Source: an uncultured Candidatus Saccharimonas sp.
GTDB taxonomy: Bacteria > Patescibacteriota > Saccharimonadia > Saccharimonadales > OMJO01
Length of the DNA: 64,000 nucleotides
Assembly: GCA_943353165.1 (NCBI GenBank)
Contig: CALRAM010000002.1
Location: 65,716-129,715 of the forward strand
Direction: 5' to 3'
Below, piece by piece: positions 5,305 through 42,128 of this stretch. Under the pieces are notes generated by a model. The model searched no databases. It saw only the letters and a list, made by a program, of their open reading frames with translations, and was not told the origin of the DNA. Position 1 is the first letter of the stretch; each line of letters starts with the position of its first letter. The position numbers were made by a program, and so were the translations under genes.

Positions 5305-6594
5305 ATGCTCAAAAAAATAAAGAGCCTATCAGGGGCACTAATAAACACCAAAAAAGTAGAATCCAAAAACCAGTATATTGTAGGCTTGGATATAGGTACG
5401 GAATTTGTAAAAGCTTTAGTAGCTAGGATTAACGGCGACGCCTTAGAGATCATAGGAGTTGGCCGAGCCCACCAAGATTATAACGATATGCAGGCAGGGG
5501 CTATTTCAGACATTGGAGCTGTAGTGGCTAACTGCAATAATGCTCTAAACCAAGCCGAAAAACAGTCGGGAGTTAGCGTTCGTACGGCCGTTCTGGGGAT
5601 AGCCGGAGAGCTAGTAAAAGGCACTACTACGACAGTAAAGTTTAATCGTAAAAGTGCCGAAAAAGTTCTGGATATCAAAGAGCTGGAGCATATCATTGGT
5701 CTAGTACAAGAGCGAGCCGAAACAAAGGCAAAACAACAGTTAGCGTGGGAGCTAGGGGGCAAGGAAATAGATATCAGATTAGTAAACAGTGCTTTGGTAA
5801 ATATAGAAATAGACAGTCATATGGTCACGAACCCGATTGGTTTTCAGGGCAAAGAAGTAACAGTACAGTTATATACGGCTTTTGCCCCTATGATACATAT
5901 AGGCGCCTTGGAGCGAACGGCTCACGAATTGGATCTAGATTTGTTGGCTATCGCAGCTGAACCTTTTGCTGTTTCACGGTCGGTAATCGGCGATGACCCA
6001 AATGCGACTATGAGCGCAATTTTGATGGACGTAGGGGGTGGCACGACTGACTTGGCCGTCGTAAATGATGGTGGAGTACAAGGCACAAAGATGTTCGGAA
6101 TTGGGGGCAGAGCCTTTACTAGATCCATAGAAAGAGCCCTGGACATAAGTTTTGTTCAGGCAGAAGAAATAAAATTATCATTGGGCACAAACAAAATACC
6201 CAGTTCCAAGGTCTCTGTAATAGAAAAAGCTTTAGACAAAACACTAGAAGTCTGGCTGGGCGGAATCGAGCTAGCCTTGGGCGAGTTTACTAACTTGGAC
6301 CATTTGCCTCACCGCTTACTTTTGTGTGGCGGTGGTTCCAGCCTAGATTTGTTAGTCGACAAACTAGAAGAGAGTTCGTGGTACACTAAATTGCCGTTTA
6401 CTCGTAAACCACTCATACAACACATAAGCCCTAATCAAGTCGTCGGTATCGTCGATAAAACTGGTGATGTAATTGACCACACTTTCATAACCGCCATGGG
6501 ATTGCTTAGAGTCGGACTGGATACACTGCACCAAGAAGACAACAAGCTAACAAGTTCCTTGCGTGATAAAGTAGACAGGATGCTACGCACATGA
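5305..6594 (+). CDS. ftsA: Actin-like ATPase, cell division protein FtsA-like
   Basis: IVGLDIGTEFVKA phosphate-1 motif, DVGGGTTDLAV and LCGGGSSL motifs. Confidence 0.7.
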   Translation: MLKKIKSLSGALINTKKVESKNQYIVGLDIGTEFVKALVARINGDALEIIGVGRAHQDYNDMQAGAISDIGAVVANCNNALNQAEKQSGVSVRTAVLGIAGELVKGTTTTVKFNRKSAEKVLDIKELEHIIGLVQERAETKAKQQLAWELGGKEIDIRLVNSALVNIEIDSHMVTNPIGFQGKEVTVQLYTAFAPMIHIGALERTAHELDLDLLAIAAEPFAVSRSVIGDDPNATMSAILMDVGGGTTDLAVVNDGGVQGTKMFGIGGRAFTRSIERALDISFVQAEEIKLSLGTNKIPSSKVSVIEKALDKTLEVWLGGIELALGEFTNLDHLPHRLLLCGGGSSLDLLVDKLEESSWYTKLPFTRKPLIQHISPNQVVGIVDKTGDVIDHTFITAMGLLRVGLDTLHQEDNKLTSSLRDKVDRMLRT

Positions 6595-8270: not shown

Positions 8271-8679
8271 TATACTATCTTTGGATGTTGGTGAAAAGCG
8301 GATTGGTGTAGCTCGGGCAGGCGTGGTGGCACTTTTAGCCCAACCACAAACCACTCTATTAAATGATGCTTTGGTATTCAACAATATCGCCAGACTAACA
8401 GAAGAACTGCAGGTAAGTGAAATAATTGTGGGGTTACCGCGAAACATCAACGATGAAGACACCGAACAGACCAGATATATTAGACGGTTCGCAGATAGTC
8501 TAAAGTCAGAGGTTAGTAGCATAATTATACATTTTCAGGACGAGGCAAATACCAGTCAAAAGGCAAAAGCAGAACTGCAGGAGCGCAATAAGCCCTATGA
8601 AAAAGCTGATATTGATGCACTGGCTGCTACCTACATACTCCAAGATTTTATAGACACACGTAAAGGGTCTGTTAAATGA
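8257..8679 (+). CDS. ruvX: Holliday junction resolvase-like nuclease YqgF/RuvX
   Basis: ILSLDVGEKRIGVA N-terminal motif; 140 aa. Confidence 0.85.
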   Translation: MTINNILSLDVGEKRIGVARAGVVALLAQPQTTLLNDALVFNNIARLTEELQVSEIIVGLPRNINDEDTEQTRYIRRFADSLKSEVSSIIIHFQDEANTSQKAKAELQERNKPYEKADIDALAATYILQDFIDTRKGSVK

Positions 8680-28238: not shown

Positions 28239-28324
28239 GCGGATGTGGCGAAATGGTAGACGCGCTAGCTTCAGGAGCTAGTGGAGGCAACTCCGTGGAG
28301 GTTCAAGTCCTCTCATCCGCACCA
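28239..28324 (+). tRNA. tRNA-Leu (anticodon CAG), CCA encoded
   Basis: Hand-folded. Acceptor gcggatg/catccgc, anticodon loop ttCAGga, long variable arm, T arm ggagg-ttcaagt-cctct. Confidence 0.9.
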
Positions 28325-28420: not shown

Positions 28421-30061
28421 ATGAATAAAATAGCACATTATCTGCAGGAACATTTGTCCGGTGAAGTTATGACCAACCAGGAAGCACTGGAGTATTTTTC
28501 TACCGACGCCAGTATCCTGCGCTTAACTCCATCTATCGTGGTGTACCCACGGAACGAAAACGATATTCGTAAAACTACCAGATTTACTTGGCAATTGGCC
28601 GAAAGAGGCAGAGTAATACCCCTGACTGCTCGTGGATCAGGAACAGATCAGAGCGGCGCAGCGCTTGGTAGCGGGATTGTCATGATTTTCCCTGCTCATA
28701 TGCACAGAGTTTTGGATCTGGATGGAAAGACCGGCACAGTAACCATAGAACCCGGAATAAACTACGGAACACTACAACAAACTCTACATACACACGGCAG
28801 GTTTTTGCCACCGTATCCTGCGTCAAAGGAGTACAGCACAGTTGGAGGTGCCATAAGCAACAATGCCGCTGGGGAAAAAACAATAAAATACGGTAACACC
28901 CGTGATTATGTCAAAAGTTTGCGCGTTGTGCTGGCCAATGGCGAAGTCATAGAAACACGCAGAATATCCAAAAAAGAGCTAAACAAAAAATTGGGGTTGG
29001 CAACCTTTGAGGGTGAAATATATCGTAGCTTAGATGTTTTAATAGAAGAAAATAAAGCCGTATTGTCTAATTTAGCGCCCAAAGTAACAAAGAATTCATC
29101 TGGTTATGCCTTGGATTTGGTAAAACGAAAAGACGGCAGCTTTGACCTGACACCGCTAATTGTTGGCTCGCAGGGCACTTTGGGAGTGGTCAGCGAAGCT
29201 GTACTAGGAACAGAGCCTCATAACCCCAAAACGACATTGATCGTTGCTTTTTTCGACGATTTGGTGGTAGCCGAAGCAGTGTTGTTGGAATTGGATAAAA
29301 TATCTGATACACCAAGCGCCATAGAGGCGGTGGACGGAAATTTGCTAAAACTAGTTAAGTCCAAAAATCCAAATCTACTAAAGGGTGTCATAGATTCAAC
29401 TCTACCAAAGCTAGTTTTGCTGGTAGAGTTTGACAATACAAGCGATCGAATCCAAAAAAGCTTGGCCAAACGCGTAGAAAAGATAATGGCTAGCCAACAG
29501 ATAACCTGTCAGATAGAAACCGATCCCGCTGCACAAGAAAAATTGTGGAGTATCCGCCGAATGTCAGCGACAATTGCGGCTAGTGTTGATGCAAATGGAG
29601 CAAAGGCTTTGCCAATGATAGAAGATGGAATTGTGCCATTGGCTAGGTTCAAAGATTATATGCACGGAGTCTATGCACTGTTTGAGCGCTATGGCCTAGA
29701 AGCTGCAGCTTGGGGGCATGCAGGAAACGCCAACCTACATATGCAGCCGTTTCTGAACTTGTCGCAGGTCGGAGACCGTCAAAAAGTATTTAGGTTACTA
29801 GATGAGTACTATGAACTAGTGCTAAGCATGGGCGGTAGTACAACAGCAGAGCATGGCGATGGTCGTATCAGGGGGCCATATTTGCCCAGAATGTTCCAGC
29901 CCGAAGAATATGAATTGTTCCAAAAAACAAAGCAGATTTTTGATCCTTATGGCACCTTGAATCCGGGTGTCAAAATCGATGTAAAGATAGAAGACATAAA
30001 GCCACTACTCAGACACGAATACAGCACGGCTCATTGGCTACAACATATGCCGCACAACTAG
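28421..30061 (+). CDS. FAD-linked oxidase (GlcD / D-lactate dehydrogenase family)
   Basis: FAD_binding_4-type motifs (ARGSGTD, GGAISNNAAGEK) and a C-terminal oxidase domain. The start could be ATG 28421 or TTG 28397. Confidence 0.8.
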   Translation: MNKIAHYLQEHLSGEVMTNQEALEYFSTDASILRLTPSIVVYPRNENDIRKTTRFTWQLAERGRVIPLTARGSGTDQSGAALGSGIVMIFPAHMHRVLDLDGKTGTVTIEPGINYGTLQQTLHTHGRFLPPYPASKEYSTVGGAISNNAAGEKTIKYGNTRDYVKSLRVVLANGEVIETRRISKKELNKKLGLATFEGEIYRSLDVLIEENKAVLSNLAPKVTKNSSGYALDLVKRKDGSFDLTPLIVGSQGTLGVVSEAVLGTEPHNPKTTLIVAFFDDLVVAEAVLLELDKISDTPSAIEAVDGNLLKLVKSKNPNLLKGVIDSTLPKLVLLVEFDNTSDRIQKSLAKRVEKIMASQQITCQIETDPAAQEKLWSIRRMSATIAASVDANGAKALPMIEDGIVPLARFKDYMHGVYALFERYGLEAAAWGHAGNANLHMQPFLNLSQVGDRQKVFRLLDEYYELVLSMGGSTTAEHGDGRIRGPYLPRMFQPEEYELFQKTKQIFDPYGTLNPGVKIDVKIEDIKPLLRHEYSTAHWLQHMPHN

Positions 30062-30077
30062 GACACTGGTTGCCAAA

Positions 30078-30106
30078 TTGAGTTTTTGGCAAAAAAATTG
30101 TAAAAT
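30078..30106 (+). promoter_or_regulatory. Promoter in front of the truncated tRNA-Leu copy: TTGAGT - 17 nt - TAAAAT
   Basis: -35 at 30078-30083 and -10 at 30101-30106. It shares the TTGTAAAAT context with the tRNA-Leu(CAG) promoter. Confidence 0.45.
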
Positions 30107-30156
30107 AACGTGGTAAATGCGCGAGTGGTGGAATGGTAGACACGCTTGTCTGAGGG

Positions 30157-30185
30157 GTGAAACCCGCCTGTGGCGGGTTGCAAGG
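30157..30185 (+). repeat. GC hairpin repeat, copy H1 (gtgaaacccgcc-tgt-ggcgggttgcaagg)
   Basis: Stem 30161-30168 / 30172-30179 with a 3-nt loop. It directly abuts the tRNA-Leu 5' fragment. Confidence 0.85.
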
Positions 30186-30311
30186 TCGGAAGCCTGGATT
30201 GCGCAAGCAACCAAGCTGAGACGGGGTCGCAAATGATTGGGAACTAATGTTCCCAGTAATATTGTGACAGTGCCGCAAGGTGATCCCCGTCTGTGGCAAC
30301 CAAGTCCTCTC

Positions 30312-30320
30312 TGGTATAAT
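30312..30320 (+). promoter_or_regulatory. Extended -10 box TGgTATAAT for the intact tRNA-Leu(GAG)
   Basis: Ends 24 nt upstream of the tRNA 5' end. It sits where the acceptor 3' strand of the truncated copy would be. Confidence 0.55.
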
Positions 30321-30344
30321 TACTTGAACCCTGTATCGATAAAT

Positions 30345-30428
30345 GCGCGAGTGGTGGAATGGTAGACACGCTTGTCTGAGGGGCAAGTGCCGCAAGGTGT
30401 GGAGGTTCAAGTCCTCTCTCGCGCACCA
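30345..30428 (+). tRNA. tRNA-Leu (anticodon GAG), CCA encoded
   Basis: Hand-folded. Acceptor gcgcgag/ctcgcgc, anticodon stem cttgt/gcaag, loop ctGAGgg, variable arm with a GCAA loop, T arm ggagg-ttcaagt-cctct. Confidence 0.9.
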
Positions 30429-30437
30429 AAACAAAAT

Positions 30438-30466
30438 AACGACCTCTAAGGTCGTTTTGTTGTTTT
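30438..30466 (+). terminator. Intrinsic terminator after tRNA-Leu(GAG)
   Basis: Stem aacgacc/ggtcgtt followed by a U-rich tail. Confidence 0.7.
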
Positions 30467-30489
30467 GTAGCCGAGGACTTGAACCGAAA

Positions 30490-30519
30490 GGTGAGACCCG
30501 CCTGTGGCGGGTCGCAAGG
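30490..30519 (+). repeat. GC hairpin repeat, copy H2 (ggtgagacccgcc-tgt-ggcgggtcgcaagg)
   Basis: Stem 30495-30502 / 30506-30513. Confidence 0.85.
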
Positions 30520-30647
30520 ACTATTGACTGATTTAATACTTGTTTTAAGTAAGTCAAAGTCGGGGTTGCGCTAGCGTGACCAAGTCCCCCGCCTGTCTGA
30601 CCGAGCCCCCTGTCTTTTTGACAAGAAGGCCAGGCAGGACGGACAGG

Positions 30648-30756
30648 TCTCTCGCGCACCAAAACAAAATAACGACCTCCATGGTCGTTTTGTTGTTTTG
30701 TAGCCGAGGACTTGAACCGAAAGGCGAGACCCGCCAGTGGCGGGTCTCAAGGACTA
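30648..30756 (+). repeat. 109-nt direct repeat, copy 2 (orphan tRNA-Leu acceptor 3' strand + CCA + terminator + linker + hairpin H3)
   Basis: Starts at tctctcgcgcacca with no tRNA body upstream. The five differences from copy 1 fall in or next to hairpin loops and at one stem-closing position. Confidence 0.9.
30723..30752 (+). repeat. GC hairpin repeat, copy H3 (ggcgagacccgcc-agt-ggcgggtctcaagg)
   Basis: Perfect 10-bp stem gagacccgcc/ggcgggtctc. Confidence 0.85.
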
Positions 30757-30767
30757 GATACTAATTT

Positions 30768-31898
30768 TTATGTGTCTTTTGGTTTGTTTCGGCTGATATA
30801 ATAGTTTATTTTTTCAAAAGCTACTACCTGAATTTGTCTGATTCTCTCTCTAGATACGCCCAATATTTGGGCTACTTCATCTAGAGTTTTTGGGTCTCCA
30901 GAGTCTATCCCAAACCGAAGCTTTAGTATATTTGCTTCCCGTTCGGTCAAAGCTGACATTAGTTGTTCTAGCTGAACGCCAGAGTTTATTTGATCAGTTT
31001 TATGTTCTGTAGAGTCTACTTCTTCGGAAATAATATCGTACAGACTATTTGTATTGTCATCTGTATCAGAGCCAAATGTGCTATCTAATGATTTGGCTGG
31101 TTTTTGCTGGGTATATATCATCAGGGCGTCATTTGCATCTTCTGGGCTTATGCCTAGTTGCATTGATAGCCATTCTACTGTGGGTACTGTGCCTTTTTCT
31201 ATTTTACCGGTGGCAAGGTTGTTCATTTCTATGCTGACAAGCTTGTTTATTGTATTTTTTCTGTGGGGCAAGCGTATCAGGTGCGCGTCGTTTGCTTCGC
31301 TTCGTTCAATTGACTGTTTTATCCACCACGAAGCGTAGGTAGAAAACTTGAAGCCTTTTGACCAGTCAAACTTGGGAATACTACGTATAAGTCCTATTAC
31401 TCCGTTATTGAAATGATCATCACGGTCTACTACGGCCGTAAAAGCAGAGCCAGATCTTTTGCCGACTATGGAGGCTACCAATCTGAGATTTGCATGGACA
31501 GCTTCATTTTCAGCCCAGTCTAATATGGGAGCCACCTGATTCTTTTCGACAATGTTTGAACTGTCATCATCCAACACATCGTGGCCGCTTTTTATCAGAA
31601 AAAACAAACTAGTTTCTTGGGGCCTGTTTAATAGGTCTACGTTTTTTAGGCTGTTCAGGACTTGTCTATAAGAGAAATCGGAAAGATTTAGGTTGCCCCC
31701 TTTGTTTGTGTATTGTTGGGTTCGTTGGGCTTTCAGTTCTTCTGCAACCGACATGTATTCTATCAGAGAATTTTCTCGACGGTCTGGATCCATCAGTCCA
31801 TCAGAAATTTCCATTAAGTGTGCTCTCTGACGAGTCCATTCTTCGTTATATTCTATTTGCGGACGTGGTTCATTTTCTGGGTTGTATTGTGCAGTCAT
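30768..31898 (-). CDS. RNA polymerase sigma-70 family factor (housekeeping-like)
   Basis: Region 2 FSTYASWWIKQSIERS; region 4.2 LDEVAQILGVSRERIRQI; 376 aa. Confidence 0.9.
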   Translation of the reverse strand: MTAQYNPENEPRPQIEYNEEWTRQRAHLMEISDGLMDPDRRENSLIEYMSVAEELKAQRTQQYTNKGGNLNLSDFSYRQVLNSLKNVDLLNRPQETSLFFLIKSGHDVLDDDSSNIVEKNQVAPILDWAENEAVHANLRLVASIVGKRSGSAFTAVVDRDDHFNNGVIGLIRSIPKFDWSKGFKFSTYASWWIKQSIERSEANDAHLIRLPHRKNTINKLVSIEMNNLATGKIEKGTVPTVEWLSMQLGISPEDANDALMIYTQQKPAKSLDSTFGSDTDDNTNSLYDIISEEVDSTEHKTDQINSGVQLEQLMSALTEREANILKLRFGIDSGDPKTLDEVAQILGVSRERIRQIQVVAFEKINYYISRNKPKDT

Positions 31899-32624: not shown

Positions 32625-32716
32625 TTCGACTCACTTCGTTCGCTCATGGTGAACCACGTAGAGTTCGACAATCAAACTAAGCTCAAGCGGGCCTACCCGC
32701 CGAAGCTTTAGCGTAT

Positions 32717-32792: not shown

Positions 32793-32800
32793 TATAAAAT

Positions 32801-32825
32801 GCCTCAGCTAGTCTGGGGCTTTTTA
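32801..32825 (+). terminator. Intrinsic terminator after tRNA-Gly
   Basis: Stem gcctcag/ctggggc followed by TTTTT. Confidence 0.7.
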
Positions 32826-32844
32826 TATGGTTTGACGACTCATA

Positions 32845-32967
32845 CTCCTGGCCTCTTCAAAGATAAAATATGGCCAGGATTGCTCGCGAACGCGCCTGTG
32901 GTCGGGAGTTTTTGAGTCTCCTCACCCGCACCATATAAAATGCCTCAGCAAACCTGGGGCTTTTTAT
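32845..32967 (+). pseudogene. Rearranged 3' fragment of tRNA-Gly with a 27-nt insert in the T stem, plus a duplicated terminator
   Basis: An inverted 14-mer of tRNA nt 40-53 (32845-32858), direct ggccagga (32872-32879), then the insert ttgctcgcgaacgcgcctgtggtcggg. T loop, acceptor 3' strand, CCA and terminator follow (32914-32967, matching 32773-32826). Confidence 0.8.
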
Positions 32968-33041
32968 TTGGCGATAGTCTTGTAAAATATGGGATATTAT
33001 AGTATAATCTGTAAATAATTTCATAAGGAAAGAAAATTAAG

Positions 33042-41879: not shown

Positions 41880-41888
41880 ATTATAGCA
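41880..41888 (-). promoter_or_regulatory. Extended -10 box TGcTATAAT for the intact tRNA-Ala
   Basis: Ends 10 nt upstream of the tRNA 5' end on the minus strand. Confidence 0.55.
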
Positions 41889-41975
41889 AAAAGGGTTCGA
41901 AATATTTTAGGGATTCGACTCACCTTAGGCGAGCCCGTCGCAACATCTATGCAAACCAGTTTGCAAGAGTTGACT

Positions 41976-42006
41976 CCCTTGCAACCCGCCACAGGCGGCT
42001 TTCACC
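41976..42006 (-). repeat. GC hairpin repeat, copy H4 (ggtgaaagccgcc-tgt-ggcgggttgcaaggg)
   Basis: Same 30-nt motif as H1-H3. It abuts the tRNA-Ala 5' fragment exactly as H1 abuts the tRNA-Leu fragment. Confidence 0.85.
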
Positions 42007-42128
42007 TTGACCTCTTCCATGCCATGGAAGCGCGCTAGCCAACTGCGCCAATGCCCCAAGTATGGTGTTTGGTCTGGCACCACCTAGATATAATACATTA
42101 TTTTAGTATGCGTATTTAATGCTAAAGT

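Follow-up and report, generated by a model that had tools for sequence, protein, structure and literature searches.

Introduction

Partial copies of tRNA genes have been described at the attL and attR ends of integrative elements, as stated in the passage of PMC9897764 that cites Reiter 1989 and Williams 2002. The locus analyzed here is a direct repeat at positions 30415-30756 of a 64,000-nt stretch of DNA, hereafter the window, from an uncultured Candidatus Saccharimonas sp. (assembly GCA_943353165.1, contig CALRAM010000002.1, positions 65,716 to 129,715 of the forward strand); it duplicates the 3' end of a tRNA-Leu(GAG) gene together with the sequence that follows it. Like att copies, the locus presents a direct repeat of a tRNA 3' end downstream of the intact gene, relatives in which the repeat starts in the T-loop, and a patchy distribution with precise empty sites. 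Unlike them, however, its copies are separated by 124 nt and not by kilobases, no recombinase is found, identity carries on for 95 nt past the end of the tRNA, a structured interior has been conserved across genera, and partial 5' copies of the tRNA lie upstream. The locus is also akin to a tandem segmental duplication in its head-to-tail units, its period of 226-233 nt, a copy number of one or two among close strains, which differ by exactly one period, and a divergence between copies that is near the divergence between strains; but its units are differently truncated and the intervening sequence consists of old conserved modules, not of a fresh duplicate.

Further points of comparison are provided by tRNA-like processing signals and trailer RNAs, such as the t-elements of plant mitochondria, the tRNA-like 3' ends of the mascRNA type and the 3'ETS-leuZ of E. 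coli. The locus shares with these a structured trailer element that reuses a T-stem-like helix, an acceptor 3' strand and CCA, although it bears no sequence or Rfam relation to them, lies beyond a terminator and has a 5' acceptor strand that is missing or degenerate. Archaeal multi-intron or split tRNA genes with transposed introns, as in the Thermoproteales and Nanoarchaeum, offer a parallel in that a single hairpin module is found here in different tRNA-derived loops (the anticodon loop of the Leu copy and the T-loop of the Ala copy), with other hairpins in the D-loops of partial copies in the relative L107; yet the host is bacterial, copies that lack an acceptor strand cannot yield a tRNA, an intact gene lies alongside, and neither a bulge-helix-bulge motif nor a splicing endonuclease was seen, with no search aimed at the motif. 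Finally, repetitive extragenic palindromic (REP) sequences, bacterial interspersed mosaic elements (BIME) and miniature inverted-repeat transposable elements (MITE) resemble the module in being short GC-rich hairpins with conserved flanks and a variable pairing stem, repeated in the genome and often with GTAG 5' of the GC stretch. An origin of this kind, involving a REP-associated tyrosine transposase (RAYT) or a MITE, was considered because of the recurring GTAG and was rejected: the module lies beside tRNA genes only (16 of 16 plus-strand covariance-model matches in the 169 kb searched), no RAYT or other transposase was seen, and the hairpin is embedded in larger conserved modules.

The literature searched contains no description of such tRNA-adjacent elements, and the module family beside Saccharibacteria tRNA genes appears to be undescribed. 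Partial tRNA copies are usually dismissed as integration scars, but here they recur at four tRNA families without mobile-element genes. Given that genomes of about 1 Mb shed non-essential DNA, their persistence suggests a constrained role in the termination, processing or insulation of tRNA units, or else a new tRNA-mimicking RNA. There are practical consequences as well, as these loci break short-read assemblies, yield a spurious 217-aa 'protein' in public annotations, and constitute hot spots of strain-level structural variation and of tRNA-Leu allele replacement.

A three-unit tRNA-Leu(GAG) array

We interpret the repeat as one period of a short head-to-tail tRNA-Leu(GAG) array with a conserved structured spacer, reshaped by local recombination, and assign to this reading a probability of about 0.55. 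The array spans positions 30078-30756 and comprises three units, all on the plus strand and head-to-tail, at offsets of 226 and 233 nt. In order, these are a promoter and a 5' copy of the tRNA with an insert (unit A), which lacks the T-stem 5' strand and the acceptor 3' strand; the unit of the intact tRNA-Leu(GAG) (30345-30428, plus strand, CCA encoded), called by ARAGORN and scoring 53.2 bits against the Rfam tRNA model; and a degenerate body with the last 14 nt of the tRNA (unit C), which ends with the same terminator, linker and hairpin as the intact unit. The preliminary description had given 30415-30756 as the extent of the feature, which is correct for the repeat; the array itself extends further, with an additional unit upstream at 30114-30339.

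The two repeat copies, R1 (30415-30523, plus strand) and R2 (30648-30756, plus strand), are identical at 104 of 109 positions in a direct alignment, as had been claimed, and the pair reaches 120 nt at 93% identity in a repeat search. Both consist of the last 14 nt of tRNA-Leu(GAG), a bidirectional intrinsic terminator (stems at 30438-30456 and 30671-30689), the linker GTAGCCGAGGACTTGAACCGAAAGG with a segment complementary to the T-arm (anti-T; 30473-30485 and 30706-30718), and a GC hairpin (H2, 30490-30519; H3, 30723-30752). Within the linker, GAGGACTTGAACC is an exact 13-nt reverse complement of the tRNA-Leu(GAG) T-arm at 30404-30416, a relation that the preliminary description had overlooked, as it had the upstream unit. 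The five differences between copies also fall where they had been placed: two in the terminator loop (T/C at 30447/30680 and A/T at 30449/30682), one just 5' of the hairpin (T/C at 30492/30725), one in the hairpin loop (T/A at 30503/30736) and a G to T change at 30514/30747 that improves pairing and lengthens the H3 stem. Both terminator stems are predicted on both strands, their differences being confined to the loop, and H3 is also terminator-like on the minus strand, for the convergent sigma-70 factor gene (30768-31898). The flanking genes, encoding this factor and an FAD-linked oxidase, are ordinary. The repeat is real, since the same structure is found across independent assemblies: the region 29900-31000 is 100% identical in three of them (L001; L002, which is GCA_964703795.1; and L005) and has two mismatches in L004, and a shorter contig (L006) covers the locus from 30374 with one mismatch.

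Unit A is preceded by a promoter-like site, P1 (TTGAGT-N17-TAAAAT, 30078-30106, plus strand), that is also conserved in L090 and L094. Its tRNA copy (30114-30157, plus strand), which consists of four leader bases and breaks off at the anticodon loop after the initial 40 nt of tRNA-Leu(GAG), matches 30340-30383 at 44 of 44 positions. At the anticodon loop the copy is joined to a third instance of the hairpin module, H1 (30156-30185, plus strand; GGTGAAA-CCCGCC-TGT-GGCGGG-TTGCAAGG), scoring 55.2 bits with the covariance model. The structured insert that follows (30186-30298, plus strand) is homologous to the trailer of tRNA-Leu(CAG) in L104 and is absent from L090; in it, helix GGAAGCCTGG/CCAAGCTGA bears a GCAA-loop hairpin and helix GACGGGG/CCCCGTC encloses a long hairpin along with 14 nt copied from the tRNA variable arm (30269-30282), the fold of 30158-30300 yielding z = -5.05. 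A pseudo-T box (ACCAAGTCCTCTC, 30299-30311, plus strand), made up of the 3' half of the T-loop and the 3' strand of the T-stem without an acceptor strand, abuts the -10 box of a second promoter-like site, P2 (30293-30320, plus strand), which would serve the intact tRNA and has a TG-extended -10 element, TGGTATAAT, at 30312-30320. The same apposition of pseudo-T box and -10 box is seen in L105 and L107. Between P2 and the tRNA lies a leader anti-T segment (ACTTGAACC, 30322-30330, plus strand) complementary to GGTTCAAGT in the T-arm.

Between R1 and R2, the spacer opens with an AT-rich hairpin (30524-30557, plus strand), supported by the fold and conserved in the L107 alignment, and continues with a conserved core (30559-30587, plus strand) that comprises a G-rich hairpin and the pseudo-T box GTCGGGGTTGCGCTAGCGTGACCAAGTCC. 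The remaining 60 nt form a GC-rich hairpin (30588-30647, plus strand) placed between pseudo-T box and 3'-end copy; this hairpin is lineage-specific, because the two elements that it separates are contiguous in L105, L095 and L111.

The earlier interpretation of the locus is thus supported in part. The spacer is indeed structured (30524-30661 folds with z = -3.4), and the identification of ACCAAGTCC as a T-loop-like remnant is upheld. The spacer, which had been regarded as specific to this locus, is a member of a conserved family that other Saccharibacteria also carry next to tRNA genes, and the second acceptor 3' strand, described as lacking a partner, is predicted to pair with linker GCCGAG (30470-30475). 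This pairing would be part of a 12-bp helix closing the downstream element (30467-30661; -84.5 kcal/mol, z = -4.7), in which the linker pairs with part of the second acceptor strand and the bases immediately preceding it, and ACCA is left free. The supposedly orphan strand consequently has candidate partners; in the shorter fold (30524-30661) it pairs around GCGCTAG (30568-30574). The conserved GGGGTYGC motif was also considered as an acceptor-like partner of the 3' tail, and this pairing was discarded, as it does not covary with the tail across Leu alleles.

Strain-level variation in copy number

The structural differences found at this locus in L094, L090 and L091 establish that copy number is a strain-level polymorphism. 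In L094, whose flanks are 96-97% identical to those of the window, unit A, the tRNA and the linker-hairpin are present together with exactly one repeat copy, and the spacer is absent. Its alignments to 30000-30523 and to 30648-30900 overlap by 109 nt, that is, by one copy, and the two genomes differ by a whole period. In L090 unit A is shorter, the tRNA is intact but has another acceptor stem (GCGGATG), and the linker-hairpin is missing; the sequence there, in which GTAGCCGAGGACT runs directly into AGATACT, is consistent with a 43-nt deletion between AGGACT repeats. The same short form is found in L091, and both pass directly from GTAGCCG(A/T)GGACT to AGATACT. Hence the number of units does vary among close relatives, as the preliminary description had proposed to check. 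At the five variable sites L094 carries T, T, T, A and G, so that relative to it R1 has one or two private changes and R2 has three. The divergence between R1 and R2 (4.6%) is near the synonymous divergence between the window and L090 (5%). Units in the same orientation, a regular period and close relatives differing by whole periods are what a tandem duplication presents, and the repeat by itself is an ordinary copy-number polymorphism.

A minus-strand open reading frame (ORF) at 30009-30662 (216-217 aa), called in several public assemblies, was examined as a possible gene and rejected. It has no Pfam match and overlaps the tRNA in antisense, and it is not conservable in L094, since the 233-nt indel is not a multiple of three and shifts the frame; the ORF is almost certainly spurious.

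Relatives were sought first with the sigma-70 factor and then with the FAD oxidase as query. A scan of reference genomes with the sigma factor returned paralogs only, at no more than 38% identity, and the metagenome scan provided 11 loci, four to five of them useful. The names borne by homologs of the FAD oxidase assign the genome to Candidatus Saccharibacteria. The sigma-70 factor (30768-31898, minus strand) is nearly lineage-specific, with three homologs above 41% identity in 5.8 billion proteins. In L091 its ortholog is 63% identical at the protein level, yet next to the stop codon some 80 nt, made up of the tRNA end, the terminator and the linker, match the window at 96%. Identity falls to 84% across the 3' end of the sigma-70 gene, and this drop suggests a recombination boundary inside it.

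Conservation of the spacer and hairpin module in distant relatives

In distant genomes, tRNA-Leu(GAG) is followed by a terminator, by GAGGAYTTGAACCG..AGG, by one or two hairpins, by additional hairpins and by GTGACC-AAGTCCTCTCTCGCGCACCA. In L105, L095 and L111 the tRNA 3' end recurs in this way, within a contiguous ...AAGTCCTCTCTCGCGCACCA, 146-241 nt past the intact tRNA. The conserved spacer core of the window (GTCGGGGTTGCGC..GTGACCAAGTCC) has homologous segments in L104 and L105, in unit A and in the leader of the window's tRNA-Ala, as revealed by multiple alignment, and also in L107; the segment from hairpin H2 through the core is 81% identical to L107 3178-3300, beside tRNA-Leu(CAG) (82 of 101 aligned positions). 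The promoter and leader region of an intact tRNA-Leu in L105 and L107 is built from the G-rich hairpin, GTGAC..AGTCC, TCTATAAT and CTTGAACC, which implies that the 'spacer' is the normal inter-unit sequence of the tRNA-Leu units of this clade.

The hairpin module is defined by constant GGTGARA and TYGCAAGG flanks and an NGT loop, whereas its stem varies (CCCGCC/GGCGGG, ATTGCC/GGCAAT, CAATTC/GAATTG, ATGTCC/GGACAT and ACTGCC/GGCAGT). Across 13 sequences, 98.1% of the cells are paired and double-sided changes occur in six of the eight pairs; the score was reached by none of 500 shuffles, and slid registers score at most 0.16, with 30-50% of cells paired. The corresponding covariance model located a new copy upstream of tRNA-Leu(CAG) in L107. 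Fourfold-degenerate sites of the neighboring gene are saturated among the relatives that align in register, L107 included (0.31-0.37, versus 0.25 at random), although the value for the window against L107 came out of register and is not usable. Conserved non-tRNA cores at saturated neutral divergence, combined with compensatory changes in stems, point to constraint, and both the hairpin and the spacer modules look selectively conserved.

Divergent alleles also coexist at these loci. The displaced 3' end of L104 is an L105-type allele, unlike that of its own intact gene, and in L090 the fragment and the intact gene differ in the acceptor stem, mismatches that imply recombination with divergent alleles. 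The acceptor stem GCGGATG belongs to tRNA-Leu(GAG) in L090 (3129-3212) and L104 (3600-3684) and to tRNA-Leu(CAG) in the window (28239-28324), and GCGCGAG is common to both Leu isoacceptors in L095; judging from the sequences, such swaps point to gene conversion or allele replacement among tRNA-Leu paralogs. In L095, near-identical trailers (860-990 and 5320-5450) follow tRNA-Leu(CAG) and tRNA-Leu(GAG), 4.4 kb apart.

Similar architecture at other tRNA genes

Two further loci of the window present a comparable design. The trailer of tRNA-Gly(GCC) (32793-32972, plus strand) consists of a terminator, an anti-T segment (32844-32858) that is a 15-nt perfect reverse complement of the variable/T-stem region of the same tRNA, a partial 3' copy split by a 26-nt insert (32880-32905), a copy of the 3' end that stops at 32933, and a second terminator. 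The two terminators differ from each other mainly in the loop, just as those of the Leu repeat do, and the same trailer design is found in L107. The leader of tRNA-Ala(GGC) (41880-42060, minus strand), 11 kb from the Leu locus, contains a perfect copy of the first 53 nt of the tRNA (56 nt with three leader bases; 42060-42005) joined at the T-stem to a Leu-type hairpin module (TGAAAGCCGCCTGTGGCGGGTTGCAAGG, 42004-41977), and then a structured insert, a pseudo-T box (41923-41909), the anti-T segment TTCGAACCC (41901-41893) and TATAAT. Equivalents at tRNA-Phe and tRNA-Gly were identified in L090, L104, L105, L107 and L111, whereas L108 and L109 carry plain genes. As in the Leu array, the Ala and Phe partial copies lack one acceptor strand, and ARAGORN and Rfam call the intact genes only, save for a decayed tRNA-Phe copy in L090 with 30.7 bits in Rfam, which indicates that duplicates of whole genes, since decayed, account for some of the 'halves'.

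Upstream partial copies of tRNA-Phe and tRNA-Gly in L107 (8022-8110, minus strand, and 8388-8470) carry GC-rich hairpins in their D-loops, for instance TCCGCTGTACAGCGGA; hairpin insertion in partial copies is hence not limited to the T-loop.

Proposed origin of the array

The array reading can be set out as a series of steps. The tRNA-Leu units of the clade would be separated by a conserved spacer in which a bidirectional terminator is followed by a linker with complementarity to the T-arm, then by a hairpin of the form GGTGARA-stem-NGT-stem-TYGCAAGG, by additional hairpins and by a pseudo-T box (GTGACC-AAGTCC), which normally lies directly against the -10 box and anti-T leader belonging to the tRNA downstream. 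The outer units would have been truncated through recombination at short homologies. Upstream, an AGG/GG junction (AGG followed by TGARA) might have joined H1 to the initial 40 nt of a tRNA copy; downstream, an exchange between a pseudo-T box and a real T-arm would have deleted the promoter and most of the next tRNA, of which R2 would be the remnant, with the last 14 nt, terminator, linker and hairpin. Exchange between R1 and R2, by gene conversion or unequal crossing-over, could then maintain their likeness at about 95% and gain or lose the 233-nt period. The one-copy close strains would result from such an exchange, and the form seen in L090 and L091 from a further 43-nt deletion between AGGACT repeats. 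So conceived, the array accounts for the sharp identity boundaries, the terminator after each 3' end, the one-period difference of L094 and the age of the spacer. The order of these recombination events is one that we infer, as we do the action of the modules as RNA or DNA structures in the termination, processing or insulation of tRNA units. The modules might plausibly serve for termination and to insulate the units from the convergent sigma gene, or else assist pre-tRNA in its folding and processing by antisense pairing with the T-arm.

Several considerations weigh against this account. An intact tandem tRNA-Leu(GAG) pair with a full spacer is present in none of the relatives compared, so that the ancestral tandem state is a reconstruction, and the sample amounts to about ten genomes. 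The pattern of bases in R1, R2 and L094 would fit either a recent duplication in the lineage of the window or the loss of an old arrangement in L094. Covariation like that of the hairpin can be mimicked by perfect palindromes born independently, and conservation of the spacer could stem from horizontal exchange among Saccharibacteria instead of selection.

Alternative explanations

A broader reading, possible and held only tentatively, is that Saccharibacteria carry an undescribed family of expressed, tRNA-derived structured noncoding RNAs (ncRNAs) in the leaders and trailers of Leu, Ala, Gly and Phe tRNA genes, and that each of them combines a cognate anti-T segment and the covarying GGTGARA...GCAAGG hairpin with, in the case of trailers, a copy of the T-stem 3' strand, acceptor and CCA. 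If so, the family would provide 3'-end mimics or T-arm antisense regulators acting in tRNA maturation, surveillance or defence, and changes in copy number would tune their dosage.

A related possibility, somewhat more doubtful and the chief rival of the array reading, is that the trailer at 30467-30661 is itself an ncRNA gene and mimics a tRNA 3' end or 'top half'. In such a molecule the anti-T segment would pair with the 3' part of the T-loop and T-stem and close a multi-hairpin domain that exposes the acceptor 3' strand and ACCA ahead of a terminator of its own; its targets might be readers of tRNA 3' ends (processing nucleases, the CCA-adding enzyme or a toxin) or the upstream 5' fragments. 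All trailers examined (five of Leu, two of Gly and five of Phe) do fold with a closing helix and a largely free acceptor-3'+NCCA tail, and the 12 bp of the predicted window helix equal the length of an acceptor and T-arm stack, followed by ACCA. The five tRNA-Phe trailers, moreover, have unalignable terminators around a near-invariant non-tRNA core, with compensatory changes in 19 of 47 consensus pairs at saturated neutral divergence, in Gly the anti-T segment changes in step with its cognate tRNA (ACTCCTGGCC versus CCCCTGGCC), and a terminator follows the second 3' end again at the Leu and Gly loci of the window. Yet the 12-bp minihelix geometry is not kept in other trailers and the element matches no Rfam family. 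Above all, this explanation is held in doubt because the element follows a good terminator without a recognizable promoter of its own and is dispensable, being absent from the close strains L094 and L090 and from several genera (L108, L109). As regards Rfam, version 15 reported only tRNA at threshold in the window and five relatives, and permissive thresholds yielded matches at chance level only (CRISPR-DR28, mascRNA).

It is unlikely that the repeats are attL/attR-like scars of small non-autonomous or internally deleted integrative elements that target tRNA genes from the T-loop to the 3' end. Several genomes do have, 130-240 nt past their Leu, Phe and Gly genes, direct repeats of the tRNA 3' end that start in the T-loop (the repeat in L105, L095 and L111 being 21 nt long and of att-type extent), the distribution is patchy with precise empty sites (L094, L108 and L109), the alleles of intact gene and fragment differ in L104 and L090 as they would with incoming DNA, and partial tRNA copies are a known signature of integration (PMC9897764). 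In the window, however, identity begins in the T-stem 3' strand and runs to 95 nt past CCA, an extent that bears out the preliminary statement that this is not a simple att-site duplication. The 'cargo' amounts to 124 nt flanked by the FAD oxidase and sigma-70 genes, and no integrase, transposase or phage genes are found near the Leu, Gly and Ala loci of the window. Nor did viral contigs contain an exact match to the tRNA 3' end, and BLAST against phage and plasmid records matched the tRNA gene only, with the caveat that Saccharibacteria elements may be missing from these collections. Partial 5' copies upstream and a conserved, covarying interior would not be expected of such scars either.

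Slightly less likely still is an origin without function, in which template switching during replication at the T-arm hairpin left an arrangement of the duplication-inversion-duplication (DUP-INV-DUP) type that persists through slow deletion. It would explain why the 5' segment of the T-arm appears forward, inverted (as a perfect anti-T of 10-15 nt) and forward again in Gly and Phe trailers, and why partial copies have GC hairpins inserted in their D-, anticodon- and T-loops. Complementarity of flanks to the T-arm is likewise specific: it is seen in 13-17% of 52 tRNAs, against about 5% in mismatched tRNA-flank pairs and 0-2% for other regions of the tRNA. Conservation of the non-tRNA cores at saturated divergence, with stems kept by compensatory changes, argues otherwise, as does the expectation that streamlined genomes of about 1 Mb would not retain the same junk at the same site across genera.

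A mis-joined or duplicated assembly can be dismissed with near certainty: contigs L003, L007, L008 and L009 do terminate within the repeat, and single-unit relatives, which the preliminary description had linked to a possible artefact, do exist (L094, L090 and L091), but the two-copy form is present in many independent assemblies, the five differences make R1 and R2 distinguishable, and the short-read contigs L007 and L009 stop at 30695, about 30 nt into the longest stretch common to both copies, where a short-k-mer assembly graph is expected to branch if both copies exist (k-mer size assumed).

Other classes of element were tried and rejected. A CRISPR (clustered regularly interspaced short palindromic repeats) array does not agree with three copies at irregular spacing, and the hairpins score 17-19 bits with the Rfam CRISPR-DR28 model, below its gathering score of 35. 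The differences between copies are not adenine-specific and there is no reverse transcriptase among the neighbors, as there would be for a diversity-generating retroelement. Hammerhead and other small ribozymes, considered for the resemblance of a GUGA start, and group I or II introns find no support in Rfam, and the interrupted copies are unable to give rise to a tRNA. A split tRNA, with its 5' piece upstream and its 3' piece downstream, is not congruent with Leu halves that do not complete one another or with the fact that most loci are one-sided.

Additional observations on trailer modules

A recurring terminator module, TCCTCCGTCGC...GGAGGATTTT, is placed after the CCA of various tRNAs and copies of tRNA ends (Leu and Gly) in L104 (3560-3600 and 1796-1840), L105 (5760-5800) and L107 (8579-8625), as if trailer modules had been shuffled between tRNA loci. 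In a similar vein, the spacer between tRNA-Phe and tRNA-Gly in the window (32625-32716) contains TTCGACTCAC...CATGGTGAACCA, which is like the TGGTTCG...GTGAACCA hairpins that follow tRNA 3' ends in L104 and L105.

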